This document shows, one piece after another, positions 3,834 through 64,000 of a stretch of 64,000 nucleotides of DNA. Where the stretch lies: NCBI GenBank assembly GCA_035352955.1, contig DAOPYQ010000002.1, positions 233,267-297,266 of the forward strand. Direction: 5' to 3'. A program made the translations under genes and the position numbers. Below the pieces are notes generated by a model. The model was not told the origin of the DNA. It ran no database searches and worked only from the letters and a program-made list of their open reading frames with translations. The number at the start of each line of letters is the position of its first letter. Within the stretch, counting starts at the first letter, position 1. The stretch comes from Candidatus Omnitrophota bacterium (GTDB lineage: Bacteria; Omnitrophota; Omnitrophia; Omnitrophales; Aquincolibacteriaceae).

Positions 3834-5274
3834 AATGTTGCTCTTCCGAGGCCGCCTTCAGCGCTTTCATCAACGCTTTCGCTTTGTGCAGCGTCTCTTC
3901 GTATTCTTTTTCCGGATCGGAATCATGGACGATCCCGGCTCCGACCTGCAGATGCCCGCGATCTTTCCGGAGAATCATCGTCCGGATCACGATATTGAGA
4001 TCCATGTCCCCGCACAGATCGATATAACCGAGCGACCCGGTATAGATCCCGCGCCGCACAGGCTCAAGCGCGTCGATGATCTCCATGCACCGGATCTTCG
4101 GGCACCCGGTGATGGTCCCGCCGGGGAAGATCGCCCGGACAAGATCAAAGGCGTCTTTCCCTTTTTTCAGCCGGCCGGTGATCTTCGAGACAATATGGAC
4201 GACATGGGAATATTTCTCAAGCGTCATGAATTCCCGGACCTTCACCGAGCGGTAATCGCACACGCGGCCGAGATCGTTCCTCTCGAGATCCACGAGCATC
4301 AAATGCTCTGCCCGCTCTTTGGGATTCCTCAAAAGCTTTTGACGCCATACCGCGGGGCGGTTCCTCTCCCCGCCCGAAGGACAAGTCCCGGCGATCGGAC
4401 GCGTTTCACAGATGCGTCCCGTTTTACGGATCAGCCTTTCCGGAGAACTGCTGATGATCTCGAGGTCCCCCACCCGGAAGAAACAGGAAAAAGGCGACGG
4501 ATTGATCGCCCTGAGTTTTCCGTAAAGCGCGGCCGGAGATCCGGAAAATCCGAACCGGAACCGCTGCGAAAGGTTCGCCTGATAAATATCTCCCGCCGCG
4601 ATGTAGTCCTTGGCTTTTTCCACCATCGCCTTGAACCGCCGCTTCGGCATCTCCGGCACGATCTCCTTCAAATGGAAAGGTTGCGATTTTACCGGCAGAG
4701 TCTCGAAGAATTTTTTTAATTTTTCGCAGCGTTCCCTGCACGTCTTGGCATTTTTAAAAACGTTCCGGCGGGAGGCACGCTGCGCGTCATACGCTACGAG
4801 GTAATAAACACGCCGGTGATGGTCATAAACGATCACCTCCCTGAAAAGGCCAAGGTGAAGCCGCGGAATCCCCAGTTCTTTTTTGGGACGGAAACCGATT
4901 TTGTCGCAAAGCTCCGCAAGCTCATAGCCGAAGTAACCGACAAACCCTCCGGTAAAGAACGGGTACTCCTTCCCGGACGAGCTGCGGTAACGCCGGAATA
5001 TCTTTTTAAGCGCGGCGAACGACTCCGCTGCCGGATATGTTTCGCGGGATTCCCCCGCAACGCGAAGCGAGGTTCCCTCTAACCGGACCTCGAGAACAGG
5101 GTCCATCCCGATGTAGGAATAAATCTGATCCGGCGGAGCGTATTGAGGAGAGTCGAGAAAAAAACAGGTTTTCGACGTTGCGTAAACCGCGCGAAAAACT
5201 TCCCACGGGGTTTTGGAAGATCGGAACTGTTCAACGTGAAGCGGCATAGGATGCAGCCCAAAGTAAAAAGACAC
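3826..5274 (-). CDS. pabB: Chorismate-utilising enzyme, aminodeoxychorismate synthase component I (PabB) or anthranilate synthase component I family
   Basis: 482 aa with the C-terminal chorismate-binding signature GGTITGCPKIRCMEIIDALEPVRRGIYTGSLGY. Confidence 0.75.
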   Translation of the reverse strand: MSFYFGLHPMPLHVEQFRSSKTPWEVFRAVYATSKTCFFLDSPQYAPPDQIYSYIGMDPVLEVRLEGTSLRVAGESRETYPAAESFAALKKIFRRYRSSSGKEYPFFTGGFVGYFGYELAELCDKIGFRPKKELGIPRLHLGLFREVIVYDHHRRVYYLVAYDAQRASRRNVFKNAKTCRERCEKLKKFFETLPVKSQPFHLKEIVPEMPKRRFKAMVEKAKDYIAAGDIYQANLSQRFRFGFSGSPAALYGKLRAINPSPFSCFFRVGDLEIISSSPERLIRKTGRICETRPIAGTCPSGGERNRPAVWRQKLLRNPKERAEHLMLVDLERNDLGRVCDYRSVKVREFMTLEKYSHVVHIVSKITGRLKKGKDAFDLVRAIFPGGTITGCPKIRCMEIIDALEPVRRGIYTGSLGYIDLCGDMDLNIVIRTMILRKDRGHLQVGAGIVHDSDPEKEYEETLHKAKALMKALKAASEEQHYE

Positions 5275-39018: not shown

Positions 39019-39173
39019 GGATGGAGGATGACGGATGGCGGAGGGCGTAAAAGCCAAAGCTCCATCCGCCCCAACTTTTAATTTTATTTCTGAAAAGGTA
39101 GTTGGGACGGCCCCAATTTCCGCTTCGCAAAAATTGATAGGTATTGGGACCGCCCTCCGTCATCCGACATCCG
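39019..39173. mobile_element. MITE-like element with ~22-bp terminal inverted repeats GGATGACGGATGGCGGAGGGCG, intergenic copy
   Basis: The left end ggatgacggatggcggagggcg and the right end cgccctccgtcatccgacatcc are reverse complements. An inverted copy of the whole element lies at 39842..39942. Confidence 0.6.
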
Positions 39174-45100: not shown

Positions 45101-48100
45101 CAGCGGTCTCAGCACGTTAAACCCCTCTGCCGCGTGGCTCATCATCACGGGCCACTCCGCGGGATCGAGCCGCCCCGGCTTCTTCAGGATCGCGTCGGGC
45201 ACCGTGAGTTTGCCGATATCGTGGAACGCGAAGCTGTCGACCAGCGTCCGGGTGACATCAAGTCCCATAACCCCGGCCGTGGCAACGCCAAGCTCCGTCA
45301 CGCGCGCCATGTGATCGAGCGTGACTTCGTCTTTTTCCGCCATCTGTTCGAGCAGTGCGAGAAGCTCGCTCCCGACCGGCCCGTATTTCAGGACCCTCCC
45401 GATCGCCTCCTCCCCCGCCCGAAGTTCGCTCCGGTCCGCGGGAGTTCCCCAGGAGGAGCGGGAAACCTTCAGGGATATCTCGAGGGAAACTGCATAACTG
45501 CCTTGTTTTAAGATTGAAGCAGAGCTCTGAAGTCCGGCAATTTCATTCGTTCTTTTAATTCGATAGACACTTTCCGGGAATTGGTCTTTCAAAACCACTG
45601 CCCACTCGTTCCGTCCTCCAAACTCCGCTGTAAAATCATCCGTATCATCAGGAGCAATAACCAACCGCCCCTTTGGCTTCAATAAACGGAAAATGCTGGC
45701 CGCCTTCCTCTTCCCAGAATCAAAAAGATACGTTTCATCCGGATAAGGCGCCAAACAATAGACCCCCGCCACGAAAGCCGCTCCCTTTTGCGCGGCAAAA
45801 GCTTCGGAGTCCTTACCGAGGATGATCCGGACATTCCTCAAACCTTCCTGCCGGATCAATAAAACCATTTTGTTGAACAACGCCGGATCGGGTTCGATAA
45901 AAATGAACCGGGCCCCGGGATTCTCACGCACAAGCGAAAGCGAAATCCAGGATTCGCCGGGACCGATATCTACGAACAGGGGCGCCGCGGCATTACCAAA
46001 AACTTCCCGCCAGTCCGCCGTCACAGAAATGATCGGAGAAAAATCGTTTTTCGCGGTTGCTTGGCGGTCGTTTGTTTTTTCATTTTCCGGCGACGCTTTT
46101 TGCGTTTGCCGCGACTCGGAGCGGGCCTCCTGCCTGTCTGCCAACGTGTCCACGGCAGAGCTATCTCTTGTTTGTTTGCGGGCCAGTTCCTCTTCAGCGG
46201 CCCGCCGGACTTCCGTCAAAAGCGCTTCGGTCGAAATGTCTTCGGGCGTGCTTAAGAGGATCGCGGGAGCAACGCGGGCCAGGAACCGGAGGATGGCGAC
46301 ACTGCCGTAAGAATAGGTCCATTTCTTCTTGAGGTGCGTGATGTCACTAAAGCCTTCCTTGACGAAAACGCTGGTCGAGGCCTGGAAGGTGCTTGGCGTA
46401 TTTCCGTCCTCGCGCGCGGTCCGCACCAAGAGATCGGAAAAAGGAAGCATTCTCTCCAGGGTCAGCTGCGGGTACGGATCAAAGACCTCCTGCATCCCGG
46501 TAGCGTCCGTATCGAGATTGTAGAATAACGCCTGCTTCCTTGGCCTCGTGACGGAGGGATTCCCGAAAAATTTCCCGATCCATCCCCAACTGGTTTGCCC
46601 GTCAATGCCCGGCACGGACGCCGTCCGCCACAGATCAAGGCTTCCCTTGACCCAGAAGTGCCCGGCCAGGAACCCCGTCGCGCGAAAAGCCTGATTAAAA
46701 TTTTTCATGGTGATCCAGAAAAGGGAATCTCCAAGCACCCCGGATATTTTTTCCCAGTCTTTTAACCGCGCCGGATCTCCGACGGGAGGAAATTCACCGG
46801 GCATTTTAAAGAATGGCTTTGCCGGATCCGGGATCGCGCCATCCGGACCCGCCGAAGGGCTTTCGTCATGGTGCTCGTCCATAAAAAGCTGGATATTGCC
46901 GGAAGTCGGCATCTCCCCCCGGGCCGCCGCTTCCATGGCATATTTAGCGGAACTTCCGTGATCCCCCGCAAAATAAAAACTGACCGTCCCGCCGCCGGGT
47001 CTTTTGAAACGGATCACCACGTCCCGCGCGGGGACCACGGGATTTTCCCCCGCCTGGACGATGTCCTGCCAGGTCCCCAGGATCAGGGCCGGAAAATCGT
47101 TGGATTGCCAAACGCCCTTTCCGTCGGCCTGCCGCACAAAATGATAATGTGCCCGGTCGAATTCATCGAGGAAGGGGGGTTGTCCTTCTACCGAAGGTGC
47201 GTGAAGTTTCTCCGCCGGATAATACATCATGCCTTCCGCCAACCGATCGATCCGCATCTCAGCACGGCGGCTTTCATTAGAAGCCGGCTGAGAAGTGCTT
47301 GAATATTGATTCAAGCGCATCTCGGCTGGGGCTTCCTTGGTCCCAGCACGAGTGCGTGCAGGACTATGGATGTCCTGCCGCACCTCGGCGCGGGGAAGGT
47401 TTTGGTCCATGACGGCGATCACGTCTGTCACTATCCGCCGGAATTGCTCGTACGTAGGCGCGGCATTGGCAATACGCTGCCCATCCACCAGCTGTTGACC
47501 ACGGGCAGAGCTGTAAAACGACGCCGCGGTCGCGTCGGACACCGCATGACCCGTGACCCGGTTTGAAACAAGAGTGAGTACATCCTGTAAAACATGGCAT
47601 AACTCATGCCCCGAAGATTTCAGGAATAATCCGGTTAACCAGATACTTCCTCCCACAACGATCGTCGCGCCCGCCGAATACAGGAACAAGCCGGCATCGA
47701 TATGAGATCCTCTGTTCGCCAAGTCGTGAAGAACCATGCTCGCAAAGAGCGCCGGATAAACATGAATCCGGTCAAAGTAGCGGATCACTTTCACAGAGCC
47801 CGCCTCATCGAAATGGGTGGCGGTCTCTCCTCCGTTATATTGGAATATAAGCTTCCCCAACGAAAACACCAGGCTCCCAAGCCCCCATAGCGTGTGGAGA
47901 TAACGTTTGTGTTTGAGATCTTTAAAAATTTCCAACGGAGTGCGATAAAAGAACCGGTAAAGTTCATTGAATATGACTGCCGTCCAACTCCCCGGGGCTC
48001 GGACCACGGGAACGCCGTACCGGGCTGCCAGGATTTTGACAAAACGCTCGTAATCGGCCGCGTCCCTGAGCTGGCCGGGAACGGAGAACATCGTTGATTC

Positions 48101-51100
48101 CATCCAGGCCGAAGCCAAAACATCGTTCAATAACCGCTTTAAGGGCGGCCGTAATCGCTCATCCGCCGCAACGGCCGCGGTGGAACTGTCATCGATTTTC
48201 CGTGCCGTCCCGGTCCGTAATTCGTTTCGTCCGAATTTTTCGAGCCGCTCCCCGGTGAATTTCTCGAGATCCGCAAAACCTTCCCCCATCCTCCGGACAG
48301 CCTCCGAAAAAACCTCCCGGTTCCACGCCCGGTCCTGACTTTCAATGAAGACCTCGTAAGGGAAATAGAACATCTGCTCCATCTTTGTCATCGGATGTTC
48401 TTCGGAATTATTTTCCACCAGACGCCCGGCATCCCGGTATTTTGCGTAGCGCGGGCCCGCAAAGTCCTCCCGGATCGCCTTGACCAATTCCTGATACTGG
48501 GCCAGCACCGCCCCGACCCGGTCAAGATCGCCGCGGATATCTTTCGAAAGGTCCCGGGCCAAAAGACCTTTCTTTAAAAGAACATACATTTCGAGTTTGA
48601 GGGCGGCCAGCGAGTTCCTGATGTTATGGTCAAACCATTCTCCCCAGGTCACCCGGTCGCCGTCATAACCCTCCCCGAAGACCGAAAAACCGTTCTCAAG
48701 TTCTGTCACGATCCCGATCAGGTCCTCTAGATACTGGACCTTCTGGCGGAGTCTATAGATGTCCGTTCCCTTTTCCTCGCCCGCCGCGGCCTTGCCTCCG
48801 AAAGAATCCGCCCTTATCGGAGCCTCCGGATCGGGCCATGCGATCTCCCGGGGAACCTGGATCACGGAAGGAATCGTTCCATAAGACGCCACCGTCTTCG
48901 CGCCGAACAAAAGATCCTCATATCCGGGAACGATCCGGTCGTCGAACGCTTTTTCCGCCGAAGTATAAAAAAGCGACGCGCGGTCAAGGCGAACCTTCTG
49001 CGGCTCATGCGCCTCGCGGTTCGTGCGGCTTACGGCATCCGCGAGAATGGCCGCTTCTTCGGGGGAAAGCGGCGCCACCACATGCATCGCCGTAACGTGA
49101 TAACGGGTCCGCGGCCTGAAATTCGAAAGACCTTTGTGCCTTTCGAGAAGTCCTTCCACCATCGCGTCCATCGCGGCAAGATCCGAGTCCCGCGCCGGGT
49201 CGAACTCAAAAACAAGAAGCCGGCCTCCCTTGAAAAAAGCAAGCTTTCCGAGGTAACCTTCGGCCGACTTCATGGTCTCAGCCGCTTCGCGAAAAACCGA
49301 CGGGTCCTTTTCCAGTTCCGGGTTCCGGTCTGCGGGTCCCGCAACCAACGTGATGTGCCGGACCTCCGAAGGAACCAGCCTTACCTTGGCCGCGAGCTTG
49401 GGATCCGCGCGGTCGAGCTTGCGAAAAAGTTTCAAAAGCATTCCGTCCATATACGCGTTCGCTTCGGGATCGTTCCCGAGCCTGTGGGCAAACACAACAT
49501 GACGCGCCGGCTCGATCGGCTCTCCCTTGACACCCTCCGCCTTCATCGCGGCAATATCGTCCTCTTCGAGCCTCGCGAACTGTTTGCGGTATTCCTGAAC
49601 TCGCTGAACGGTACCGGGCACCTTGTGGACACTAAAGTGCTGCTTCGCCGCAGGTTGATCCGCCCGCATCTCAGCACGGCGGCCCCCCTCTGCCGCCGGC
49701 TGAGAAGTCCTCGGATATCGATCCGAAGGATCCTCGGCCCTCGGGATTCCCACAACGATGCGGTACAACTGCTCATTGTGCCGGTACAGTCCCGCGACCC
49801 GGCCAAGCGATTCCAGCGACCATCCTCGCTTTCGGGCCAGGGCCGTCAAGGAAGCAATCTCGTAATCGGTATACTTGGGAGATTCATCGCCGAGCATCAA
49901 CAGGGTCCCGGGATGCGAGCGCTTCAGAACATTCCCGACTAGCTCATCGATCTCTGGCTTGGAGGACAGGTAACGCGCCTGTTCCGGATGCTGCATGATC
50001 GAGGGCAATACATTGAGCATGATGACCAGATCAAAATTCTCACCAGCGGGGATCCCCCCGAAATCGGTCTTCCTCCCGCGGTCCATCGCGTCAAGCCGGT
50101 CCTTCAGGACCGAAGCCCAGGCCGACACTTTCGGCACTTTGAACTGCCGGTCAAGAGCCTCCCGGAGCGCCGCCACCCGCTCAACGTATTTCTCGTCGTG
50201 CACATCGCTGGGCTGCAGCAGGGTCACATCCACCCCGGCAGTTTCTAAGGCAAAACTGATATCAAAGAAATCGGACGGTCCCACCTCGAGGACTTTCTGC
50301 CCTGCCTTGATCCTGCCGCTCGCGAAAAGTTCCTGCGCAAACCGGACGGCACCTTCCTGAACCCGCCGCGCTTCCTCTTGCTCGAAGGAATACCAGCGCA
50401 CCACCCAGCTCAGAACATCCAGCACACCGGTCCGGTCAAACGCTGTCAGAAGGTCCCGGACAGGAATGCTCTTTCCCTGAGCCTTCGCGGGCGCCGTTGC
50501 TTTCACGGATGTTTTCCCCGCCCGTGATTCGGCGCGGACGTCCGGCGCAAGCCGGACCTTGAAGATCTTCACCGTCTGCGTGCCGGCGGGACGGCCGAAC
50601 GCGCTGACCGAAATGACCTCCTGGCGGATCTTTCTGACCGAAAGACCCTTTTCCTGTTTGAAGAGAGGCTCCAGGGTATTTCCAATTCCCATGACGTAGT
50701 AGGCGCCGCCGGGTTTGAGACGAACGGACAATTCGGACAGGGTTTTGGAAAACGTCCTGCCTCCGGGGTCTTCCGTCCTGAGATCCGCTTCGTTTCGGTC
50801 TTCGGAAGGAGCCGGGGCGTTATCAATAATGGCATCGTAGGTATCGCGGACATTCTCAAACCCGTCGCTTTCCCAGACCCGCACACGGTCCTGAAGGTTG
50901 TGCGCGTACACATTGGCCAGGCTGTTTTGAACTTCCAGCTTACCAATGTCCACGCCGTCGAGCTCGATACCCGGTACCGTTTTCCCGAGAACCACAAGCT
51001 CCGGACCTGCCCCCGACCCCTTAACCAGGATCTTTTGACCCGGACGGATCTCCGGAAGGACCGCGGCGAGCAGGACGGCAACATAGGGATTTTCGGGAGA

Positions 51101-54100
51101 ATACACATTGGCAAAAACGAGGAACCGGTAGTCGTTTAATGTCTGCTCCCGGAATTGAATGCGGTGGGCACTCGAAACATTGATCCGCTCGCCGGTCTTC
51201 TTTCCCGGAAAAACCACGGGCGAAAGCAGGTCCCGGCGGTCCCGCCAGAAGGAGAGCCACTCTTCTCCCGGATCAAATATGGATTTTCGCCCCTCAAAAA
51301 CCGTAGGGTCCAATTCCATCAAGCTGAGGTTCCCGCGTCTTGTTTTCTCAACCGCCAGGCCAAGAGGGTCGCCCTTATACGCAAGGAGCCAGGAACGGAA
51401 AACTTCGCCGTCTGAAAACCAATCGGCAAACCGGATCACCCGGTCAAGCGATGCGGACGGCTCGATCGGAAAAACGCTATAGCCCTCGCCAAGCGAAAGA
51501 CCGGCGGGTCCCTCGGGAGATATCCCGAGCGCCTTCAGGTAAAAATAAAGCGGCGAATTTTCCGAGACTTTCAAACCCTCCGCCCGCTTCCCTTCCCTCG
51601 GCGCCGCCCGCATCTCCGCGCGAAGATCGTCCTTTTTGCTCCCGGAATCAGCGTCTGCGGCTGAGCCCCTTCCCGAGATAAGATTTTCCCTCATGTACCA
51701 AGCCCCGTAGAGCTTCATATTTTCGGAAGGCGCCGGCACGGAAAACGCAACGGGCTTTTCCAGTGACCGGAGTGCGGCGGCAATAGCCTCGCGGGTTTCC
51801 CGATTGAAGTCCCCCGTTTTCGCGCGCAGATCCGCAAGAGCAGCCCGGATCCTTTCCGAACAACTCCGGTAAACGGAAGAGTTTCCGAGCGCGCGTCCCG
51901 CCTCAACCGCGATCCTCGATGCGCTGATGAAAACCGAGATCTTCACATAAATGTTCTCGCTCTCCTCTCCGAATCCGGTCAGCCCTTGCAGAAGATCTTC
52001 CAAAGCTGAGGGAGAAAGGACGGGCGCTACGCGCTCCATCCCCGCAAGGGCTTTCTTTCTCAGATCGCTTTCGCCGATCCCCTTGAAATTGGAAATAACC
52101 ATCCACTGGGCCGTAAAAAACATGGCCCCAAAAACCGCTAACCCGGCCAAAACCATGCCGTTTTCGGCAAACCATGCGTTCATCGGAGATTTTGCGGCAA
52201 ATTCGGGACGAAGCGCGAAAAGAACTCCGACCATCATCGCCGCTTGAGCTACCGCAATGCTTTGAACGAGCCCGACGAGCGCGATCCTTTTCAGGATCTT
52301 TATCAGCCGGCGGTCTCGCCATGTCTCGGCGGTTCCTTTACTGCCATCCTTGAGCACTTTCAACCAGTAGACCGCCTCGACCGAAGCGATCCATTCCGTT
52401 CTCACCTGCTGCATCAGCTGTGAAGATCCGGCCGGTGCGGCGTCCTCAATCAACGCATCGAGGACCCTTCCGAGATTTTCTTCATAAATAATGGTGAGCC
52501 CTTTAGGAAAGAGACGGGCGAGACGCGAATCGCTCGGCAATCGGGAGAGATCAGCTCCCGCGGCCAACATCTCCCGGAGCGCAAAAAGCCGGGCGATCAC
52601 TTCAAGCTCCAGAGAAGTCGCCGGACGTTTAATGTCTTTTCGTAGGATCGCAAGCTGTTCGCGTGTCCGGGACGCCCATTCTTCATCTACATTCGTGCCC
52701 CGTTCCACGATCCGGACCGCCCCAGAACCTTGGGACAGCTTCGCGCCTGCACCCACGGGAGCGGCGTCAGAAACGGTAACAGAAGGCTCGTGAAGAGCCT
52801 TTTGCGGAACGGTTTTCTCCAAACCCTCGACCGCCAGAGAAATTTCCTTCCCCAACGCGAAGCCAACGATCCCGAGTCGGGACCGGGTCTCGAGAAGCCC
52901 TCTCCGGAGCATCCGGACTTTCTCTTCGCTCACATGGATGACCGGAAGCTCCCCGGGATCTTTGGAGACCGAAACGGCGAGCCGGGAAGCACTTAAAAAT
53001 GCCTGCATTTTCAGGGAGAGATCTTTCTGGTCCTCCGCGAACCGGATCAGACGGTCCGTCATATCCGCGCGAACTTCGGACGCCAGATCCGGCGCGATCT
53101 TCGCAAGCTCCACAAGTGCGTTTTTTCTCAAAACGGCTTCCGCGATCCCGCCGGTGCAAGCGAGGATCAGGAAATTTAAACCGGAGAAAAGCCCCACGAA
53201 TCCGGACACCGCGGTAAAAAGAACCCGGCTCTCCGCGAACCCTCCCTGCGCCGCGGAATTCGCGCCGCCGAAGTAAAAAGACCCCAAAGCCCCGGCCAAA
53301 ACCGCCGCAGCCTGAACGATCCCGGCGATCGAAAGTCTCCGCAAAAGTTTTTCGGTGCGCCGCTGTTTTTCCGTCCGGGCAAAGCCTTTTCTGCCGTCCA
53401 CCAGGACCTTGAACCAGTAGCCGGCTTTCACCGTAGCGCTCAAGGCCGCTTTTTGATCCGGCGAAAGCCCGGCATCCCCGGCCCTTTCGACTTCCCCGAT
53501 CAACGCTTCCAGGATCCTTTCCAGATTCCCGGAATAAATAAGCAGGAGCCCTTTCGGGAAAAGGCGGCCAAGCCGAGAATCAGCCGGAAGTCCGGAAAGA
53601 TCCGCGCCCTCGGCCATCATGTCGCGAAGCGCGAAAAGCCGGGAGAGAACTTCAAACTCTCGCGGGAGCGCGGAACGCCTGATGTCTTTTTGAAGCGTCA
53701 CATACTGTTCGCGTGTCCGGGCCTCCCATTCTTCATCCGCGGTCCAGACACGAGTGCGTGCAGGGCTAAGGATGTCCTGCCGCAATTCAGCCCGGACAGA
53801 TCTGGGTTCCTTTTCATATCCCCTTGCGGCCTCGCGGGCGGTCGAAAGAACGGCAATGCTGCCAAGATCGAGAGCTTCGTTCATGGGCCGGATCTTTGAC
53901 CGGTCTTCCCCAGAGAAGGTGCTGCTCACCCCTCCCACGTACGTCGCGAACTTCGGGGAAGAACCCGTTGCTCCGGTGGAAGGATACATTTTTTCCAAAG
54001 TCCTGAGCATCAGCCGCGCGGCCAGGATAAGACGATCGCGAAGTTCCTCCTTGGAGGAACCTTTTTCGAAAGAAGCCGCGAGGGTGTGTTCCCCCGAGAG

Positions 54101-57100
54101 ATCGCCCTGGGGTTCGAAATCAAAGATCATATGAACCGCCTGCTTGGGATCATGCCCTCTAAAGCCGAGGTCTTGATGCCGGTAGGTCCGTTTGAGACCG
54201 TGGTGAGGCGTTACGACGATCGTGATCTCATGCTCAAGAAAATAGAGGCTTGCGAAAACGTTCACGTCCTTCTGCCCGCTGTGTTGAAAGGCCCGCATGG
54301 CTGCGACCTCGCCGGAAAGACGCTGCGCAAAAGTTTCCAGAGACGCTTCATTCCACTCGCCGGAGCGGAGCGTCAAGGCTTTCCGGTCCCCTTGCTCATC
54401 GAGAAATTCTTCCGCGATCTTTCCCTGCGATATTTCCGTAGCGGTTTCCGTCTGCGGGGCAAGCGCCTTGGGGGCGACAGCCGGGGTCTTTTTTTCCGGA
54501 AAATATTTCTCGAGGAAAAGGGCTATCCGACGGAACAGCCCCGGAGCTTTGGCTAAAAAAACTTCTTTGGGGCCGGGGAGAGCCTGCTCCGCGTTTCTCG
54601 ATAGGATCGCGCTAATTGAACTAATATCCGCTTCGACCCTGTTCGTCCGGGAGCGCGTCATGAGCCACGGACCTTCCTGGATCTCACGGAGTATGTTGTC
54701 AACTTTCGCCTGAAGGACTACGGCGTCGGCTTCGAGCGACGCGTCAGGCTCGCAGAACGTCCCCTGCGGGGTTTCCGTCGCAAGTTCGAGCGCACGAAGA
54801 TAAAGGTTGGTCGCGCGGAAAAGCGCGGGGTCTTCCGACTTGAGGAGTTGTCTCTGCGCCAATAAATTCCGCGCCATTGATTCCGCAAAACGTTCCCGGT
54901 TCGCCCCCAGGATCACCGTATTGACGATAAGATCCGCGGTCAATGTTCCGACCGCATACTGCTGGTTCGCATTAAGCCGTCCGTCCGGATCCAGATCGTA
55001 AATGGGCCCGTGAATGCCAAGCTCCCTCAACAGCCGTTCCCCGGCCTGCCGAACGAGCGCGTGGTCGAACGAATAAGAAAGGCCGAGCTGGAGCGCGTTC
55101 CGCGGGATAAGGATTATTTCCCCCATCATCGAGACCGCGACGTCATTCGCCAAAGCAAAAGAGAGGTTTTCCAGGGGAGAAATCGCTTTTGCTTCCTGGC
55201 GTTCGTAATGGGCCCAATAATCATTCCGGAACTTCGCGAAATCTTCTCCGGTCTCGAGGATCCGGACCCGGGGCGTCACGTCCAGATGCGGGAAGATCTT
55301 TTGCGCCTCCTCCATCGTTCGCGCCACCCAGGCTTCCGAAAGAACGTCCCCCTCCGCCCCATGTTGGCGCATCTCGGCTGGGACTTCCTTGGTCCCAGCA
55401 CGAGTGAGTGCAGGACTATGGAGGTCCTGCCGCAGCTCGGCACGTACGGGAAGCAAAGAACGGGTTTCCGCGCCGGCCTGGCCGACAGGCTGGCCGTCCC
55501 CTTTCTTTTTGAGTGTGACGACTTTTTTCCGGAGCTCGAGGGGGGAGGTGTAAAGCGGAACGGTCCCGTCCAGTTTTCCGGAGGCTTCCCCGGCGGCTTT
55601 TTGAACGATCTCCGAAGGATCTTTTTGCCCCCCGGCAAGAGTTGTCAGAATATTTTTCCAGGCCTCTTCTTGCCCGGTGCCAAGACGCCCGGCGATCTCC
55701 CCGATCGCAAAAAAGGCCGCCCTCCGGATAGCGTAATGATCATGCCTTGCGGCTTTCATTAATACAGGGAGCGATTTTGTGTCGCCGGCCCGGCCCAAGG
55801 CCTCGGCGGCTTCCTTACGGGCCGGAAGGAAATCATCTTTCCGGACCGTTTCGCGGAGCGCGGCAAGTACAACCTCCCGCATTTCCGCTCCCAGATGCCC
55901 GGTGCGCAGGAACGCGCCCAACGCGATCGCCGCCGCCGGCCTCAAAGCCATATCTTCCACATCATTCTTTTTCAGTAGATCGATCAGAAACGGGATCAGC
56001 TCGACTTGCTCTTTTGTGCCGGCGCCAAGGATGGCGAGGATCTTGCCGGTATTCATGATCGGAATAACCTTGAGCCTGGCCCTTGCCTCAAGCCATCGGG
56101 TCACGAGACGATAGGCGGCATAGGCAGCCAGCGCAGCGCCGGCGACGTAGTAGAGGTCGCTCCCCGTCCATTCGCCGCGGATCAATCGGTCGCCCAGGAA
56201 CGCGACGCCCGGGACCGCATCCGCCCGCAGCTCGGCTGGGACTTCCTTGGTCCCAGCACGAGTGAGTGCAGGACTATGGATGTCCCGCCGCAGCTCGGCG
56301 CGCATCGGCTTCCGGTCAAATTTCCGGCGCAGCACGGTAACATTGTCGGGCGCGGTCTTGCCTCCCGCGTACTCGACATATTGTTCCGCTGAAGTTCCGT
56401 ACGAAACAAACCCCCGGATCCGCTCATCGCGAAACTCCCGGGACTTCCCCGCGTGGAATCCATAGATCCCGTCCGAAGCCAGAAGGACCTCGACCGCGCT
56501 TGCGTCGCTCAGGTCGATCGTCTGGATATCGACTACCGGGATCAGGATCTTCCGGAAAGCCCGGTCCCCGAAAGAACGGCCCGTGATATGGGATTTCCCG
56601 GTCACGGGATCCGTCAAATACCACCCGCCGTTTTTTTGTTCCGCAAACGTATAATCGCGTCCTTCCAGGAGCCCGGCTTTTGCGGCCACCCCCCGGTAAG
56701 CATCCCGCTGTTTCGGGTCCGAAAAATGCTGTTCCTCGACCGGAACTTCCTTTCCGTCCTTGAGAAGATATGCCGGAGAATCTCCGATCAGCATAAGGTG
56801 CAGCGTCTTCCGGTCCGACGGCACGAATACGCAGGTGAGGGTCGAGCCCGACTTGAATCCTTTCATCATGGAATAAAGGATTTTGAACGTCCTCTCAAAC
56901 GCCGCGCGGATATCGCCTCGATTCAGGAGAAGCGCCCACTTGAAGACGGGCGTCAAAAGAACGCTCAGAAATCTCGAAACGGCCTTTCCGCCGTGCCCGT
57001 CCATGACCGCCATCATCTGCCCTTCAACCTTCATCCATCCCGGGACCCATACTCTGAGTTTTCGATCCACAAAACTGTCTTCCTGGGGCAGCGCAAGTTC

Positions 57101-60100
57101 CGGGTGTCCGATCTCGCTGCCGCGGGCCTGCGCGATCTCCGTTCTTTCCGGATCCTTGAAAGAGATCCGCTCCCAGGCGCGAGAAGAAACACTGGCAAGG
57201 CTGCGAAGGACGGCCCCGAGGACCTTAAGGGCGGTGCCGCCGGCGATGCTGATCATCAACCCGAGGGACCATTCCCTGACTTCCCGGGCGTTAAGGAACA
57301 TCGCCCACTTGAATTCCTGCGGAGAAAGAACGCCTTTCCCGAAACCGCGATCCAACATGAACAGGGAACAGCCTCCCGGTTTTCGCATATCAAAGACGGC
57401 GGCGTAATCGGGGTAGAGCTTCAGTTCGTCGGCGGGGAGCGGCCTCGGCCCGACAAGAGACATTTCTCCCTTAAGGATGTTGAGGATCTGCGGGAGTTCG
57501 TCGAGAGCGGTCCGGCGAAGGAACGCGCCGATCGGGGTCGGGATCCGGTCGCCTCCTTCCGGCATGGTCCGGAACTTGTACATCCAGAAAAGTTTCTGCC
57601 GGTAACCCGGCCGTTCCTGCCTGAAAAAGACCGGCGCCCCGATCCACGGCGCAAAGAGCAGTGTCGCCGCCGCCAGGAGCGGCAGCAAGGCCACCGCCGC
57701 CGCGACATCGATCACCCGGATCCACGGCGCCCATTTCGCGTACGGCGTCTTCCGGAATTCTTTCGGCGTAATAATATTCCGGTCGCGCCCCCCGAAAGAA
57801 ACCGCTTTACCACCCCCCTCGGAGACCCGGTCTCCGAGCTGCGGCGACTGATCGCGAAGCTCGGCGCGGCCGCGAGCTTTCGATGGAGCGGACGAATTAA
57901 GATCCAGAGCGGCCAATTCTTCCAGCGAGGAAGCTTTTAGTTCCGGAAAAAGCTTCGCTTCCGTAAAAGCGAGGATCCTGCCGGAGCGCCCCCGGACCTG
58001 CTGATCGATCGCTTTTGAGATCAGCTGCGCCGCGCGGATCACTCCCTGCCGCTGCCTTTTCAAGATAGCTTTGGCGCCCGCGCGCAGAAGACCTTCCTCG
58101 CTCTCCCCGAAGAAATCTTGCATGGCTTCCGTATAACCGGACAAATTCTGCTGAGGCCAGAGATGAACGCCCGATAAAATCCCTTTCTGATCGTAAATAA
58201 GCGTGACTCTGATCCAGTCGGAAGCGTAGAGACTGCGCGACACGTCGTACTTTGTTCCCCGGATCGCCTGGAGATGGGAAGTGGCCTTTTCTTCGAATCC
58301 CAGAAGCACCTGCTGCCTCTTTTCGGAGATCGCCAAGGCGCCCAACCGTTGCCCCGGTCCGGCTTTCGCGGGGATCATTTGAGAAAGGATCCGGACAGTG
58401 ATGTCGTCGTTTAATCCGTAGGGGCCCAGTTCCGCCTCTCGCTGGCGGACCAAGCTTTCCTCCGGCTCGTCTCCCGCAAGATCCGTCCGCAGCTCGGCTG
58501 GGACTTCCTTGGTCCCAGCACGAATGCGTGCAGGACTATGGATGTCCTGCCGCCGCTCAGCGCGAGGCTGGCCTTCGGAGGATCTCTTCTGCTGCAAGTC
58601 GGCACGGGATAACCACCCCCACCGGATCAGGAGATCGACGGCTTCTTTTTGAAAATTTCCCGCCGCGGATCCTTTCGCCTTCAACTCGGATGCGATCCTC
58701 TCGATCACCTGCCATTCATCCCTGTGTTCCAGAGCGGCTCTTTCAAAGACGGCTTCGAGCATTCTTCCGCGAATTGAAAGATCTTCTTCCTGAGAAGCGG
58801 TGAACGCCAGGATCTCCTCAAGGAGCGAACGGGCCACAAGCTTTTTTTCTTCGGCTTCCGTCAGCGGGACCTTGTGCAAATACCGCTCCTGAAGCTGGCC
58901 AAAATAACCCGTCAAACCCGAGCCTGTTCCCGGAAGGCCGGAGGCCATCAAGGGGCCTCCCCTCATGCCGTCTTGCAGGAGCTTTGCGTTCATCGCGTGC
59001 GCTGCTCCGACGTTGTAGACGACATTCGCCCGGGGATAGCGGCGCAAGAGTTCGAGTTTTTGCTCGCGAATGAGTTCATCTCGCCGGAGAGTTAATTCCG
59101 CCATCAGTTGCCCGATCTCGCGATAGGTTTTGAACAATTCACCGGTTTCATTTTGATAAAAGAACTGCCCGAGGGAGCCCCCGAGCGCCCTGGCCCGGAA
59201 ATAAAGGTCCCGCCAGACCTCATAGCTCACTTGCATCGGGAATCTTACACGCACGCCGGCGCCGGCCATCCAAAAATCCCGTCGCTTGACGAAACCGTCT
59301 GCCGGTACTTTCGCCCACCGATCACGGGTCTTTTCAAGCCGCCTCGAAACCGTAAGGTCATCCTGTTCGATATATCTCACGGCCCTTTCGCGGGTGACCT
59401 TTTCATAAACCGCTCGGAGCTCCCGGTCATGTTCCGCGAGGATCGCCGGCCACGGAAGTTCACGGATCCCCGCCGGCAGGCGCGCCAGCATATGCTGCGG
59501 AGACATGATCTCTTCAGGGATCACGATCAGTTCCGGATACCCATGGCGGGCAGGATTTTTGTAGGACCTTGCGACAAGCCTCTCCAGCTCCGGACGGATC
59601 TGCTCAAAATCTGCCGTGGTCAGATGCGACGAATACAGGTCGAAGGCGTGCCCTTCGATCACCGCGTCCCGGGAACTTTGCACCCGGAAGACCCGGAAGA
59701 CGCTCAGACCCATGCCGGCCGCCACCGCGAGAGTTCCGCCCATGAAAAAATTCCGCCTTGAAAAACCCCTGCCCTTCGCCGGTAAGGAAGGTTTTTCCGG
59801 TTGCCGCAGAAGCTGAACGCCTTCCGCTGCCCGCTTCCCTTCAACCACGATTGCCTTCGCCCGTATCTCCGAGCGCTTTTCACCCATCCCAGAACCAGGT
59901 TCCCAATCTCCGTCTTCAGGGGCCTCACCTACAGCATCTTGAGCGGGCCGCTGCATCCATTTCCAAAGAACTGACGGACGGATCCCCAACCCCAACCGGA
60001 GCATGGCCCCGACAACCGCTCCGAATTCGAAACCCAGAACCCATGTGGATGCAAAAACCGTAGCGATCGAACCCGCGAGGATCATCCATATTTCCCAATC

Positions 60101-63100
60101 AAGAATAATGCGGAGAGCCGCATAAGCGTTCCAGCTCCGCGGGGAATGGAAGAACCTCAAGATACCTTTTTTCCCTTCCAGGAGATCCTTGAGGGTAAAC
60201 AGAACGGGAACATCAAAGAAAAAGCTTGGCGTTGTAAACTCAGCGAACCCGCGCACCTGTTCATAGGGCTTTTCGACGACACTCCAGCCGAATTTTTCGA
60301 CGGGGATGTAAGCAAAGTTCCGCGCAATATCCGGACCGCAGGTATACGTCACGAAAATTTCTTTTTTGCGCTTGGCGTCTTTCATCCAGCTTGCGATATC
60401 GTCTTCGGTAACATCTCCGTCCGAAGCCGTCCAGGTATTCCACTTCCCGTGCCCTGCCACGCCAAGGTACCCCACAGACGGATCCAGAAGATTTCTTTTC
60501 AGATCTTCCCGGCCGGAATTCTTCAGAACGCGGAACGAAAACCCCTTGAGCCGCCAGTAGATCCGCGCGAACCAAAGCCATGGCTGGATCGCTTGATAGA
60601 TCTCCTGTGTACTGACCAGAAGAACAAATTCCTTTTTCGCTTCCGCGGAAACCGGCAGCGTCTTCACCTGATCGGGTTCTTGAGCGGAAATGCTTCGCGA
60701 AAACACCTCCGGTTCTTCGGCCTCCGGGATCTTCATGACGGCGAGAACGTCCTCGAGATCTCCGATGAAATCATCCAGGGACTCATACCGGAACTGCCGT
60801 TCAAGCCCGCAGCGCTTGAGCATGGCAAGCAATTCCGCCGGCATATAGCCGATCTCCGACAACGCTGCCGACGTCAACCCCTCGTCATTGCGCAGGGCGA
60901 TCCCGTTGAGCATTTTCCCAAGGCGCATCAAGTCCTTCGTGGAATACAAATTAAAGTCGATGACCGTGAATCGCTTTTCGGGACCGGAAAGAAAAACGTG
61001 CCAGTATTGCAGGTCCCCGTGGTTTTCGCCCGTCCAACGCTGGAATTCCCTGAGAGCTTTCGCAAAAGCCAAAAGCTGCGGCGCCAGCACCGGAAAATTT
61101 TCCCGGAAATAATCCTCACCCCGAAGATCCTTTGTGCCCCAGAGAAAGTCACCCAGTTTGACGCCTTCAACGGGCTCTGTAACATTGACCGGATTCCCCA
61201 GAGGGTCCTTCAGCGTGATCCCTCCCGCGAAATACCGGGTCCAGGGCTCCATCTCATGTTCTTTCAGGACTTGAAAGATCCGGGCCTCCCGCAGCAGGAA
61301 CCGAGGCTCCCGCCGGTCGTTCAACCGGAGCCAAAAATCTTTTCCGAGGAAGCCGTCGGGACGGATCTCCACCGCTTTTTTGACCCGCTTGCGCTCGTCC
61401 TGATCCGACGCGTCATGGAAACCTTCCCCCTCGATCAAAAACCGCCTGCCTTCCAGCGCCACGATGTCCCCGGCCAGGATCTTCTCGTAATGTCTCGTAT
61501 CCTTCACCACCCGAAGCCCCGAAAGATCGGGCCGGACCTTCCCTTTCCGGCTCACCCCTTCGGAGACCCGGTTTCCGAGGCGGGTCGGTTGGTCGCGCAA
61601 TTCCGAACGCCGCCGAAATTCGTCCGAGGCCCAGCCGCGAAGCGTCGAGAGAATATGTTTTTTAAGAAACCTGCTTTCAAGCGAGTCTTCGGCAACGGCG
61701 CGCGCTTCGAAAGAACGCGGCATCGCAAGAGGCCCCGGGCAGGCATCATGAAAGAAAGGCTGGATAAGCGCGTCTTGGGCGACCCGTGCAGGAGGAGAGC
61801 GGCCTTCATCGTCGCCCTGCGGGTCCACCGCGATCCAGGTCTTCAGATGTTTTTCTTCCAGGGTCCTAAAATATTCGGAGAAAAATGTTTTGATCACCGT
61901 GCCCGGATCCGGGAAGAACTCCTTCCGGCCTCCGATATCGAGCGAACGGAAAACAGCGCCGAAGATCGCGGCCTTCACGACCACCTGATCCGCACCCCAA
62001 CGTTCCCCGAAGGACCGGAGGCTTGTCAGGTCCGTTTCCTCTCCCGCGAGCGTTTCGTCTTGAATGTGAAGCGTGTTTTTCCTCAGGCCGGCGTTCTGCT
62101 TGAACGCCTCCTGCCTGCCCATTTTCTCCGCGTTCATCAGGATAAGTTCGGAAGCCGAAAGAACTTTCCCTTTGGGAAGCATCCCAAGGCCGGCCAGGGC
62201 TTCCGAAAGACGCGTCCGGAACCGGGCGAGGTGCGGATCGCTTTGCAAAAGCTGCGGGAACTTGACCCAGCGGTGCGGCGTCAGCGTCCGGTAGAAAAGA
62301 AGGCGGGCAGTCAATGTTTTCCCCTGTCCCTTCGTTCCTTCGCGAAGTTCGGAAACCGTCTGAAGGGCCCCGGCTCCATCGGGGAGAGCGTCGAGGCCGC
62401 GGATCCCGAGGAGCTCGATGAATTCGCGGTTTTTATTCGTCATTTTTTGAAAATGTCTTTTCCCGAATCCGATAGAATCCTCCGTCAGCACGCCTTCATA
62501 ACGGCCAGCAAGATCATTCCAGAAGTGGACCGGAGCATGCTTCGTTTCCTCGTTGGAATAAAGCTCCCCCACGCCTTTGACCGCAAGCCATGTCCCGTCC
62601 CGCAACGGGAAATAAACGGTCCGGAGATTCGCCACCAGAACCGGCATCAGACTTTTTTCGGACGAACGGTCCGTCACGCCCACAAGGATCTTTTGCCCGC
62701 GGCGGAGCATCTCCGCGACGACGGCCGGATCGCGCGAAGCGAGAAAAACGGCATGCTTGTCAAAAAACTCCTCACCTCCCATCGCTTTCACCGCGCCGGG
62801 ATCGATCGCCTCGAACGACCCGGTAAAATGTCCGGCCGGCATCACCGCCATGAACACCGGTTTAAGCGCATGATCCTCCAAAAGAACCCGTTGGATCTCG
62901 TCCGTGAACAAACCTCTCAGCGCCGGATATCCCGCCAGCCCTTCTTCGTGGAAATAAGCCTCGAAGCGGCCGCTCACCCCCTCGGAGACCGGGTCTCCGA
63001 AGTGGGTGGGTTGTTCACGCAATTCCGCGCGAACGGAATCTGCTTCGGCGATGCGAATCGCCGAAGGGAGATCTTCCCATCCCGGAAACGGCTTCATGTC

Positions 63101-63793
63101 TTTCAGGAAATCTTCCAGGGAGGCTCCTTTTTTAAGAAACATCCGGCGACTGAACACCGGCACGAAGGTGTTCAGCGCGGCGTCCCGAACCAGATAATAC
63201 TCCGGCTTTCTCCGGCTGTTCTGATGGTAAGCCTCCCCATCATGCGCCGCGATCAGAACGCGTCCCTTTTTCTGGAAAACAGGGACGAGCGTCACGGTCT
63301 TCCCCGCCAGATCGGAAAGCCGGTGGATGTCAGCGCTCCGCCCGTTTTCTTTTAAATACAGGATGCCGTTGGAAGCCACCGCAACGTCATGTCCGTAAAT
63401 CCCAAGCGGGACCTCTTTGCCGTGCGCGTAATCGATCAGCGCAAGCCGCCCAAACCGCACCGGCGCCGCCTTTTCGCCACCCGGGACTTGCTTAAAACTT
63501 TCTTTCCCGGAAGGAAAACGCGGGACGGCCGCTTGTCCCAAAGAATGCCTGTAATAAGTCGAAACGATCTTTCCGGAAACTTTGTCGCGTACGGCCATGT
63601 AGATCCCGTAAACGGGGTGTTCCTCCAGAGAGATCTCGGCAGGCTGAAAACCGCTACGCCCTTCATAAATAGCTTTGGCCTCCGGGAGCGTCACAAGCTG
63701 GTTTCCCAAAAAATTCACAAAATGCGGGGAGCCGTGGTAGCGATCGATCAACCCGCGGCTCTGGTGCCGCGATTCACGGACAGAAACCGTCAC
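39179..63793 (-). CDS. Giant multidomain protein (8,204 aa; putative GTG start). Modules N→C: unknown (aa 1–740), kinase-like fold, TM/[8 protein letters not shown] segment, phosphoglycosyl transferase (Bac_transf), PP2C phosphatase, HEAT repeats, unknown, 2× ~380-aa membrane module, 2× SAM-MTase, possible 2H phosphoesterase, HExxH, SAM-MTase, HD-GYP, SAM-MTase, unknown C-terminus
   Basis: A single stop-free frame of 24.6 kb carries recognisable motifs throughout. A PglC-like block …[22 protein letters not shown]…[22 protein letters not shown] lies at ~57340–57700. A PP2C block MAVMDGHGG…GSTLTCVF…LIGDSPAYL…LLASDGI lies at ~56300–57030. An HD-GYP block HD…[14 protein letters not shown] lies at ~44860–45380. 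Four GxGxG SAM-MTase folds lie at ~50600–51120, 49920–50310, 45550–46010 and 42050–42650. Chance absence of stops over 8,204 codons is implausible at this GC content. Confidence 0.8.
   Translation of the reverse strand: [8204 protein letters not shown]
39842..39942. mobile_element. Inverted, partially degraded copy of the MITE-like element, inserted in-frame inside the giant ORF
   Basis: It is the reverse complement of 39040..39170, including the core cccaatacctatcaatttttgcgaagcggaagttgggg. In the giant ORF it is read as …[29 protein letters not shown]…. Confidence 0.6.
41600..41672. repeat. In-frame palindromic repeat, A-type unit (encodes …[23 protein letters not shown]…)
   Basis: cgcatctcggcgcggccgcccacctttgcggccggccgagaaatgcttgaatacggattcaagcgc contains the hairpins GGCCG…CGGCC and GCTTGAAT…ATTCAAGC. 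Confidence 0.75.
42972..43168. repeat. In-frame palindromic repeat, composite B-A-B units
   Basis: Two copies of the B unit ctcggctgggacttccttggtcccagcacgagtgcgtgc(a/g)ggactagggatgtcctgccg flank one A unit. It encodes [67 protein letters not shown]. Confidence 0.8.
47253..47392. repeat. In-frame palindromic repeat, A+B units
   Basis: Near-identical to the other copies and encodes [47 protein letters not shown]. Confidence 0.8.
49665..49740. repeat. In-frame palindromic repeat, diverged A-type unit
   Basis: cgcatctcagcacggcggcccccctctgccgccggctgagaag… encodes …[18 protein letters not shown]. Confidence 0.6.
53735..53795. repeat. In-frame palindromic repeat, truncated B unit
   Basis: …cacgagtgcgtgcagggctaaggatgtcctgccgcaattcagc encodes [18 protein letters not shown]. 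Confidence 0.6.
55367..55443. repeat. In-frame palindromic repeat, B unit
   Basis: cgcatctcggctgggacttccttggtcccagcacgagtgagtgcaggactatggaggtcctgccgcagctcggc encodes [27 protein letters not shown]. Confidence 0.8.
56225..56303. repeat. In-frame palindromic repeat, B unit
   Basis: Same unit, encoding [27 protein letters not shown]. Confidence 0.8.
57811..57870. repeat. In-frame palindromic repeat, C-type unit (hairpin CGGAGACCCGGTCTCCG)
   Basis: It encodes [20 protein letters not shown] immediately N-terminal to the phosphoglycosyl-transferase module. Confidence 0.75.
58488..58563. repeat. In-frame palindromic repeat, B unit
   Basis: It encodes [28 protein letters not shown]. Confidence 0.8.
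61551..61612. repeat. In-frame palindromic repeat, C-type unit
   Basis: ctcaccccttcggagacccggtttccgaggcgggtcggttggtcgcgcaattccgaacg encodes [20 protein letters not shown]. Confidence 0.75.
62974..63033. repeat. In-frame palindromic repeat, C-type unit
   Basis: ctcaccccctcggagaccgggtctccgaagtgggtgggttgttcacgcaattccgcgcg encodes [20 protein letters not shown]. Confidence 0.75.
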
Positions 63794-64000
63794 GGGATAA
63801 ACCTGACGGGCCCGGGTTCGCGCGAGCTCAAAAGAGCTCCCGCTGTAATAATCCGAAATATCCCTCTCGGAAAAAACGAAAGCCTCCTTGCCGGCATACG
63901 AAAAAAGCGGATAAAGAACATCCGCCCGGCCTTGCTGGTAGTTCCAGAATTCGGATTCCAGATAAAAATTCGCGACCTGCCCGCGCTTCGGGTCCCGCTC

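Follow-up and report, generated by a model that had tools for sequence, protein, structure and literature searches.

The window analysed here is a stretch of 64,000 nucleotides from a Candidatus Omnitrophota contig (DAOPYQ010000002.1, assembly GCA_035352955.1). Its reverse strand carries a giant open reading frame (ORF) that encodes, among other modules, a phosphoglycosyl transferase (PGT) domain followed by a PP2C phosphatase domain. An initial annotation of the window had picked out these two domains and, adding a kinase-like domain upstream, had read them as one self-regulating glycan-priming or signalling unit. The reading that we favour, with some reserve, is that they are two adjacent enzyme cassettes, a variant PGT and a PP2C, of a modular giant Omnitrophota protein.

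Translation of the 64-kb window gives 8,204 stop-free codons for the giant ORF (39179..63793). The frame remains open to the end of the window, with no upstream stop inside it, and the GTG start listed for the ORF is artefactual, created by the cut at the window edge. With 100% identity, the window matches part of a Candidatus Omnitrophota metagenome-assembled genome, GCA_035403665.1 (contig DAONFQ010000006.1), in which the giant gene is called with a length of 10,513 residues. The analysis of the protein covers the C-terminal 8,204+ codons, with about 2,300 N-terminal residues lying beyond the window, a part that could include a signal sequence or protease or GT modules, and residue numbers are those of the window ORF. 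The same sequence is also found in JGI and Logan contigs. Because independent NCBI, JGI and Logan assemblies agree on it exactly, and because 8,204 codons without a stop are beyond chance, an artefactual ORF was rejected and the ORF is taken to be real. The modules identified in it by Pfam are the PGT, the PP2C, HEAT, at least three methyltransferases and an HD-GYP-type HD_5 domain. The features that matter for the argument are the following.

39179..64000, reverse strand: the giant ORF, the C-terminal 8,204+ codons of the 10,513-residue gene.
57806..57880, reverse strand: upstream linker of the PGT-PP2C segment, core R1976-A-E-L-R1980 at nt 57854-57868, in a 62-nt repeat of family D5 (hairpin).
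57638..57778, reverse strand: basic lead-in ITPKEFRKTPYAKWAPWIR and hydrophobic re-entrant-type helix (aa 2026-2052) with a break at L2037-P2038, from the family alignment.
57218..57718, reverse strand: PF02397 phosphoglycosyl-transferase catalytic domain (aa 2026-2192), from Pfam.
57497..57502, reverse strand: Asp2098-Glu2099 catalytic dyad, in LDELPQ (98% and 96% conserved in the family).
57440..57448, reverse strand: P2116-R2117-P2118 nucleotide-binding motif, by alignment.
57281..57382, reverse strand: clade-specific variant C-terminal third, with KPGGCSLFM for RPGxTGxxQ, from the family alignment.
57089..57181, reverse strand: PGT/PP2C junction (aa 2205-2235), '...RISFKDPE' and then 'RTEI-AQARG...', the canonical linker being absent or degenerate.
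56303..57088, reverse strand: PP2C/PPM phosphatase module (aa 2236-2497), with limits from alignment with relatives and a Pfam core at 56462-57019.
56232..56307, reverse strand: downstream linker, core R2498-A-E-L-R2502 at nt 56288-56302, in a 60-80-nt repeat of family D2 that encodes RAELRRDIHSPALTRAGTKEVPAELR (two hairpins).

The first of the two domains is a complete monotopic PGT of the PglC/WbaP superfamily. It matches PF02397 (Bac_transf) with an E-value of 6.3e-33 and 114.2 bits against a cutoff of 27, over profile positions 2-178 of 179, which bears out the description in the initial annotation of a complete PglC/WbaP-type domain. The peptide strings quoted there are found in the translation of the giant ORF, and the location 'in the middle' of the giant protein is also right, the PGT being at about residue 4,335 of 10,513. 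The interval given for it, 57340-57700, covers the core of the domain and misses its last 40 or so residues. In sequence comparison the domain aligns with the solved structures of WbaP (8T53) and PglC (8G1N, 8E37) with E ~2e-18. The alignment-based structural model, which comprises the PGT part only, has a PglC-type fold that matches WbaP and PglC. The structural check that had been proposed is thus positive for the PGT part, and uninformative for the 517-residue segment as a whole, for which single-sequence AlphaFold gave a pLDDT of 37.

Conservation was scored column by column in an alignment of 334 domains of the family. The residues that are kept include R2026 (Arg8 of PglC), D2029, P2038 (Pro24), Q2059, R2061, G2063, the KFRTM motif starting at K2073, R2093 (equivalent to Arg88), D2098-E2099, P2101, N2105, the GPRP motif starting at G2115, and P2139-G2140. 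The position of Arg145 is occupied by K2138, as it is in WbaP. The PRP motif is the nucleotide-binding motif of PGTs (PMC10186338), and roles have been described for PRP, Arg88 and Arg145 (PMC10186338, PMC10519829). The dyad and the PRP motif, whose integrity had been singled out as a check, are therefore both intact, and the Asp-Glu dyad is present in four out of four giant-embedded copies of the domain.

Within the residues of the giant protein that the window encodes, hydrophobicity peaks at the helix of aa 2026-2052 (Kyte-Doolittle 2.43). The position of P2038 is Pro in 94% of the 334 domains, and the pairing of Leu and Pro at the helix break has been described as common (PMC6133551). The basic lead-in ITPKEFRKTPYAKWAPWIR is conserved in the relative P0125. 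Net charges of +3 and +5 flank the helix, and strongly basic flanks on both sides fit a re-entrant helix at the cytoplasmic face. Most likely the helix goes into the cytoplasmic leaflet and comes out of it again, keeping the catalytic site at the interface. The recognisable cargo domains (S-adenosylmethionine-dependent methyltransferases, HD-GYP-type HD_5, PP2C and PGT, to which the full set adds HEAT) use cytoplasmic cofactors, and this too fits a location at the cytoplasmic face.

The second domain has the features of a metal-dependent PP2C Ser/Thr phosphatase with an intact metal site, as judged from its motifs. PF00481 is matched with an E-value of 5e-8 (33.4 bits against a cutoff of 20.3) over aa 2259-2444, nt 56462-57019. 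The initial annotation had placed the phosphatase at 56300-57030, which is essentially correct, and had suggested PF13672 and PF00481 as profiles, only the latter of which gives a match. The motifs are QED (2237-2239), DGHGG (2265-2269), GDSP (2337-2340), SFGD (2407-2410), SDG (2440-2442) and DN (2483-2484, within DN.T at 2483-2486). Five PP2C modules from other giant proteins are 31-43% identical to the one in the window, and nearly all of the motif residues are invariant in the six, the exceptions being the QED motif, whose Glu is replaced by Leu in P0138, and changes in single relatives in DGHGG and FGD. The metal-site acidic residues of motifs I, II, VIII and XI (E2238-D2239, D2265-G2266, D2441-G2442 and D2483-N2484) are invariant in the six modules apart from this E2238. 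A profile built from the six matches solved PPM phosphatases, the best being 4JND with E 1.8e-10. A search for homologous proteins with the PP2C part returned nothing, and one with the whole PGT-PP2C segment returned ordinary PGTs only.

The comparison with known PPM phosphatases (the CaMKP/FEM-2-type 4JND, Arabidopsis PP2C57 4YZG, and bacterial Stp1 and PstP) shows that PF00481 and all of the metal-binding Asp motifs align. Unlike these, the giant-embedded PP2Cs form a clade of their own (31-43% identity of the copy in the window to the others, with E ~1e-10 to the PDB), with about 40 additional residues inserted between GDSP and FGD, and the copy in the window has lost the motif-I Arg.

A short sequence, R-[AS]-E-x-R, subdivides the giant protein. 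It occurs 20 times in the giant ORF (aa 255-7806), where 0.34 occurrences are expected from composition, an enrichment of about 60-fold. The other 25 ORFs in the window (10,867 residues) have no copy, and there are three in 108,576 residues of ordinary PGT proteins; chance can therefore be rejected as its origin. All seven Pfam domains of the giant ORF are flanked by it. Among eight related large proteins examined, six carry 10-22 copies (1.7-3.2 per 1,000 residues), P0135 has three and P0133 has none. The codons of the core vary synonymously, with Ser encoded by both TCN and AGC, although AGR is not used for any of the 40 Arg residues. The synonymous variation disfavours a purely nucleotide-level cause for the five-residue core, a cause that may hold for the extended elements described below. 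R-[AS]-E-x-R is a candidate module boundary or processing site.

The PGT and the PP2C together fill exactly one segment between motifs (aa 1981-2497), bounded by the RAELR copies at aa 1976 and aa 2498. About 65 residues separate the two domains and there is no canonical linker between them, so that the earlier statement that the PP2C 'directly follows' is accurate. The tail of the PGT, 'RISFKDPE' ('KRFVLKDPK' in P0125), runs into the PP2C lead 'AQARG...QEDSFV', with 'RTEI' at the place where the motif is expected. The PP2C modules of relatives start 'RSE[IL]R-x-P-x3-Q-x-x-G-x4-QEDRFVN'; the core motif is found at or just upstream of the start of the module in P0126, P0127 and P0138, and after the module in P0126, P0127 and P0128. 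Likewise, PGT modules start straight after a motif in P0125 and P0225, and a motif follows the PGT in P0225 and P0167. Since only 'RTEI' stands between the PGT tail and the PP2C lead, the two appear to be neighbouring cassettes that have lost their separator.

The adjacency is not seen in relatives. P0125 and P0225, both complete genes, have a PGT and no PP2C, while P0126/P0274, P0127, P0128, P0135 and P0138 have a PP2C and no PGT. In P0225 a GT4 glycosyltransferase cassette comes two linkers after that of the PGT, and in P0125 the cassette neighbouring the PGT is an unidentified domain. No other protein with both a PGT and a PP2C was found among the best 150 matches from 1.84 billion representatives.

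On the basis of these observations, we suggest how the segment might work. Most likely, insertion of the PGT helix into the cytoplasmic leaflet brings the Asp-Glu/Mg2+ site to the membrane surface, and the PGT transfers a sugar-phosphate from a nucleoside diphosphate sugar to polyprenyl phosphate. The PP2C would act on phospho-Ser/Thr substrates at the same membrane face. The linker between the cassettes would have been lost, leaving the PGT and the PP2C in a single inter-linker segment, aa 1981-2497. The two would not be functionally coupled.

Several observations weigh against this reading. Nine PGT positions that are 65-92% conserved across the 334-domain family are replaced. In PglC, Lys7 and Arg8 form a dyad and Lys7 is salt-bridged to Asp169. 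Here the Arg is kept (R2026), the Lys is Ile (I2025) and the Asp is Asn (N2168), and the K7A variant of PglC is inactive (PMC6133551). The Arg of 'DPR' (90% conserved) is Ile, a 92%-conserved Tyr is Glu (E2171), a 90%-conserved Asp is Met, and PGxTGxxQ (PGITGLAQ in PglC) is PGGCSLFM, in which Thr becomes Cys (C2142), Gly becomes Ser and Gln becomes Met; with the Arg of 'GR' replaced by Lys, the C-terminal third reads PGGCSLFM...GK, LNxxE...M where the family has PGxTGxxQ...GR, LDxxY...D, at positions that are 71-92% conserved. The N-arm of the membrane helix is four residues shorter than that of PglC, and DSSP run on the model gives an unbroken helix from 13 to 46. All of the NCBIfam subfamily models score below their cutoffs on the PGT domain, and for that reason its substrate cannot be assigned. 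No glycosyltransferase, flippase or polymerase was found near the giant gene in the window or in the 8,204 residues of the ORF, in which Pfam likewise found no GT, glycoside hydrolase (GH), peptidase or NUDIX domain. In the PP2C, the phosphate-binding Arg of motif I (G-x-R-x-x-x-E-D) is replaced by Ala, following an eight-residue insertion; at this position three of the five relatives have Arg and two have Lys. Finally, the case against coupling of the PGT to the PP2C is an indirect one, argued from the non-conserved adjacency and from missing phosphorylation sites.

To judge from the relatives, which were obtained by an exhaustive HMMER search of the 1.84 billion representatives, the replacements are not random decay. 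The closest PGTs sit in other very large proteins, namely P0125 (4,446 residues, with a PGT 55-57% identical to the copy in the window), P0133 (2,204 residues) and P0225 (4,223 residues), together with a fragment, P0167. In the 334-domain alignment the PGTs of P0125, P0133 and P0225 are 36-56% identical to that of the window. Where the source names an organism it is Candidatus Omnitrophota, except for one record labelled Elusimicrobiota. These sequences place the PGT in a small and divergent clade that was met only in proteins that are giant or fragmentary, mostly from Omnitrophota. In the clade the Tyr position is Glu and the Gly position Ser throughout, the Thr position is never Thr, and the Lys7 position is hydrophobic in three members where it is aligned. 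The dyad and PRP are present in every member, KFRTM is unchanged in three and reads ELRSL in P0225, and the Arg88 equivalent is kept across the giant-embedded copies, as Lys in P0225. Scans of contigs from genomes and metagenomes with generic PGT peptide patterns found ordinary PGT loci only, none of them in a giant ORF. It is worth adding that the top PGT matches (P0001-P0043, about 445-455 residues) have two tandem Bac_transf domains per chain, as confirmed by Pfam for five sampled members, and that the dyad motif is intact in each copy (LDELPQ and LDEFPQ in P0001), which makes for an uncommon architecture. They were considered as fusions of a PGT with another domain and rejected, being tandem double-PGT proteins and not PP2C fusions.

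The active-site residues are kept, and nearly all of them are kept in P0125, P0133 and P0225 as well, which indicates a selected active site rather than decay. That Lys7 and the residue it bridges to, Asp169, were lost jointly suggests repacking and not breakage. The PGT module is probably a catalytically active variant. It could instead be a pseudo-enzyme, kept chiefly as a monotopic membrane anchor or scaffold at the inner leaflet, and the nine replaced positions (including Lys7, Asp169 and PGxTGxxQ), the shortened membrane helix and the lack of glycan-assembly genes nearby in the window all speak for this. We consider it unlikely, given that the dyad, PRP and the Arg88 equivalent are kept in four divergent copies and KFRTM exactly in three, that the substitutions of the clade are the same or similar, which points to selection for an altered state and not to drift, and that P0225 has its GT4 cassette two linkers after the PGT, as expected of a working priming enzyme.

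The self-regulating unit put forward in the initial annotation, in which a kinase-like domain, the PGT and the PP2C would form a single glycan-priming or signalling device with phosphorylation switching the PGT, has a precedent in CapM of Staphylococcus aureus, which shows that PGTs can be phospho-regulated. Tyr157 of CapM, which is highly conserved, is an activating tyrosine-kinase site, the phosphomimetic Y157E is more active, and CapM is inhibited by the Ser/Thr kinase PknB, for which the likewise highly conserved Thr134 is a candidate site (PMC6441080). CapM and the PGT in the window belong to the same family and share the same membrane arrangement, and CapM is the precedent for tuning of a PGT by kinases and phosphatases. 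In the WbaP alignment, the conserved Tyr comes 23 residues after the Thr of PGxTG, which is also the spacing of residues 134 and 157 in CapM. Because the spacing matches, we take C2142 and E2171 to be the positions of Thr134 and Tyr157. Both phosphorylatable residues would then be replaced, and not only in the window, as the Tyr position is Glu clade-wide and the Thr position is never Thr.

That one inter-linker segment contains both the PGT and the PP2C, undivided by a canonical linker, would also suit a self-regulating unit, as would a weak APH-like signature upstream. This 'kinase-like' region, containing HGDLQYWH and VIDFNL (aa 902-954, nt 60932..61090, reverse strand), is a sub-threshold APH match with an E-value of 0.062 and 13.5 bits against a cutoff of 23.2, and a PDB sequence search with it gave no match; a kinase-like domain was rejected on these grounds. 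It lies about 1,070 residues upstream of the PGT, across three R-x-E-x-R sites (two canonical and one variant, RAERR). With the kinase match below threshold, the PGT next to a PP2C in no relative and CapM-type phosphorylation sites missing, the self-regulating unit is unsupported, and we regard it as improbable.

A third possibility is that the giant product is a polyprotein which is cut at R-[AS]-E-x-R, releasing a bifunctional PGT-PP2C membrane protein of about 517 residues as a consequence of the lost internal linker site. This is compatible with the explanation that we favour. It would account for a motif that is some 60-fold enriched and lies strictly between domains, is conserved as amino acids with varied synonymous codons, and is common to giants of other Omnitrophota genomes; the cargo is an operon-like mix of unrelated enzymes, and cleavage of Omnitrophota giants is suspected in the literature, where the cleavage points are stated to be unknown (bioRxiv 10.1101/2023.11.21.568195). 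Against it, no protease was identified in the 8,204 residues within the window, the extended linkers appear to be under constraint at the nucleic-acid level, and a flexible charged spacer, a docking site or a remnant of the recombination that assembled the cassettes would explain the motif just as well. We hold cleavage to be no more than a tentative proposal.

Comparison with known PGTs shows how unusual the setting is. PglC of Campylobacter concisus and C. jejuni (PDB 8E37, 8G1N, 5W7L) is a stand-alone protein of about 200 residues, whereas the PGT described here is embedded in a protein of 10,513; besides the differences noted above, its loop from KFRTM to the dyad is nine residues shorter than in PglC. 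WbaP of Salmonella enterica (8T53) has a four-helix transmembrane bundle and PF13727 upstream of the PGT, which here are lacking, and the PGT in the window is followed by a PP2C and does not form the C-terminus. PGTs have been classed as small, large (WbaP-like) and bifunctional, the last with an acetyltransferase or a glycosyltransferase (PMC11626204, PMC10942596). As in the bifunctional PGTs, a single polypeptide joins the PGT core to a second catalytic domain. Unlike in these, the partner is a PP2C, which is unlisted in PMC11626204 and PMC10942596 and is not a glycan-pathway enzyme, and the PGT is one unit of an array of at least 20 cassettes in which the neighbouring cassette differs among relatives. 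By its domain organisation, the PGT in the window fits none of the three classes cleanly.

Giant proteins of Omnitrophota ('Archaeovorins' and related) have been described by Seymour et al. (2023; PMC10066038) and by West-Roberts et al. (2023; bioRxiv 10.1101/2023.11.21.568195). The protein in the window resembles the Archaeovorin-type giants in its Omnitrophota origin, its length of over 7,000 residues, its methyltransferase, glycan-related and signalling domains and its possession of some transmembrane helices. Of the domains that recur in such giants (GT, methyltransferase, GH, peptidase and NUDIX), methyltransferases are the ones found in its 8,204 residues within the window. It differs in that for the published giants the papers stress extracellular adhesion or degradation roles and protease domains, whereas its own cargo, as far as the window shows it, consists of cytoplasmic-type enzymes. 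The texts that were searched make no mention of a PGT domain or of an R-x-E-x-R linker.

Some of the linkers are extended, and these are encoded by DNA repeats of 60-137 nt inside the giant gene, all in frame and on the same strand, which fall into three families; an example of an encoded peptide is RAELRQDIHSPARTRAGTKEVPAEMR.

42905-43176, 47252-47397, 53736-53795, 55304-55449, 56162-56307 and 58424-58569, reverse-strand gene: family D2, seven copies.
41600-41673, 43031-43104, 47252-47325 and 49664-49737, reverse-strand gene: family D4, four copies.
57814-57875, 61555-61616 and 62977-63038, reverse-strand gene: family D5, three copies.

Read in the mRNA sense, each of the three families forms strong hairpins. 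In those of D4, pairing is maintained by five compensatory double changes, most of which fall in the single copy with a differing peptide. Only three of 500 shuffles reach the observed numbers of paired cells and double changes and the observed covariation score, and 102 of 500 reach the observed pair types; controls in which the position was slid fall to 32-42% paired. This is suggestive of conserved hairpin pairing in D4, in a comparison of four sequences. No Rfam family matches the linker hairpins.

The D2 family extends beyond this genome. An element of about 80 nt has one counterpart in the gene of P0125 (locus L108, 5921-6007; GCA_964508905.1), with 89-95% identity, while the homologous PGT coding DNA of the two genes is only 65% identical. 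The element is absent from the related loci L109 and L110 and from viral contigs. The comparison suggests that D2 is a mobile or very strongly constrained nucleic-acid element. A Y1_Tnp gene (IS200/RAYT-type, PF01797) lies directly downstream of the P0125 giant gene, at L108 16431-17141; none was seen in the window. Enzymes of the Y1_Tnp type mobilise hairpin (REP) elements.

Loci L108 (3001-16341) and L110 (5001-12065) are syntenic, with the order thyA-folA-lactamase_B-TPR-sodB-giant. Their giant genes encode 4,446 and 2,354 residues and have in common only an N-terminal module (42% identity) and a C-terminal module; the cargo in the middle is wholly different, with a PGT in one and a PP2C in the other. 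The C-terminal module of the protein in the window (aa 7918-8204) is 51% identical to the C-terminus of P0127. These alignments suggest a turnover of cassettes between conserved 'bookend' modules.

Taken further, the giant gene might be an array of in-frame cassettes, comparable to an operon contained in a single ORF, with R-[AS]-E-x-R as cut sites and hairpin elements that shuffle the cargo. We put this forward as a speculative model, more doubtful than probable. The N- and C-terminal bookends would be conserved and the cargo would consist of rapidly exchanging, unrelated cytoplasmic enzymes. Strand-specific elements of 60-140 nt at some of the sites would mediate the gain, loss and shuffling of cassettes, in the manner of integron attC sites or REP elements, to which this model likens them. 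The PGT-PP2C segment would be a cassette pair turned into a single released protein by the loss of an internal site.

The remaining features of the window can be described briefly. The cassette that follows the PP2C (55445..56287, reverse strand) has a hydrophobic helix at aa 2546-2568 (nt 56090-56158) and HEAT repeats. A direct repeat of 260 nt with 73% identity inside the giant gene (52428-52687 and 53478-53737) corresponds to two paralogous modules, at aa ~3340-3700 and ~3700-4058, each with a hydrophobic helix pair. A pair of 63-nt inverted repeats, 96.8% identical (39110-39172 and 39845-39907), flanks the last 240 or so codons and the stop of the giant gene, with one arm in the intergenic region between ychF and the giant gene. 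The neighbours of the giant gene are housekeeping genes: purH, trpE, citrate synthase, aconitase, icd, rsmB, pepA and ychF. Elsewhere, an ORF at 13785-19508 (reverse strand, 1,907 residues) has Gly/Thr/Asn-rich β-strand repeats and a C-terminal Phe, has no R-x-E-x-R, and looks like an autotransporter-type surface protein.

The significance of the PGT is that a monotopic PGT core appears to be working, or is at least conserved, deep inside a megadalton polypeptide. Its rewritten C-terminal third is a natural experiment on which of the 'conserved' residues of PGTs are truly required, and the Glu at the position of CapM Tyr157 is the activating phosphomimetic residue. The linker and cassette architecture is a more novel lead than the PGT-PP2C pair. 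The R-x-E-x-R linkers provide concrete candidates for the module boundaries or cleavage points that the literature calls missing; they make the cutting of giants testable by proteomics, and they allow structures to be predicted module by module. At least some of the giant proteins of Omnitrophota appear as arrays of cytoplasmic-type enzymes on the inner face of the membrane, and not only as extracellular adhesins.

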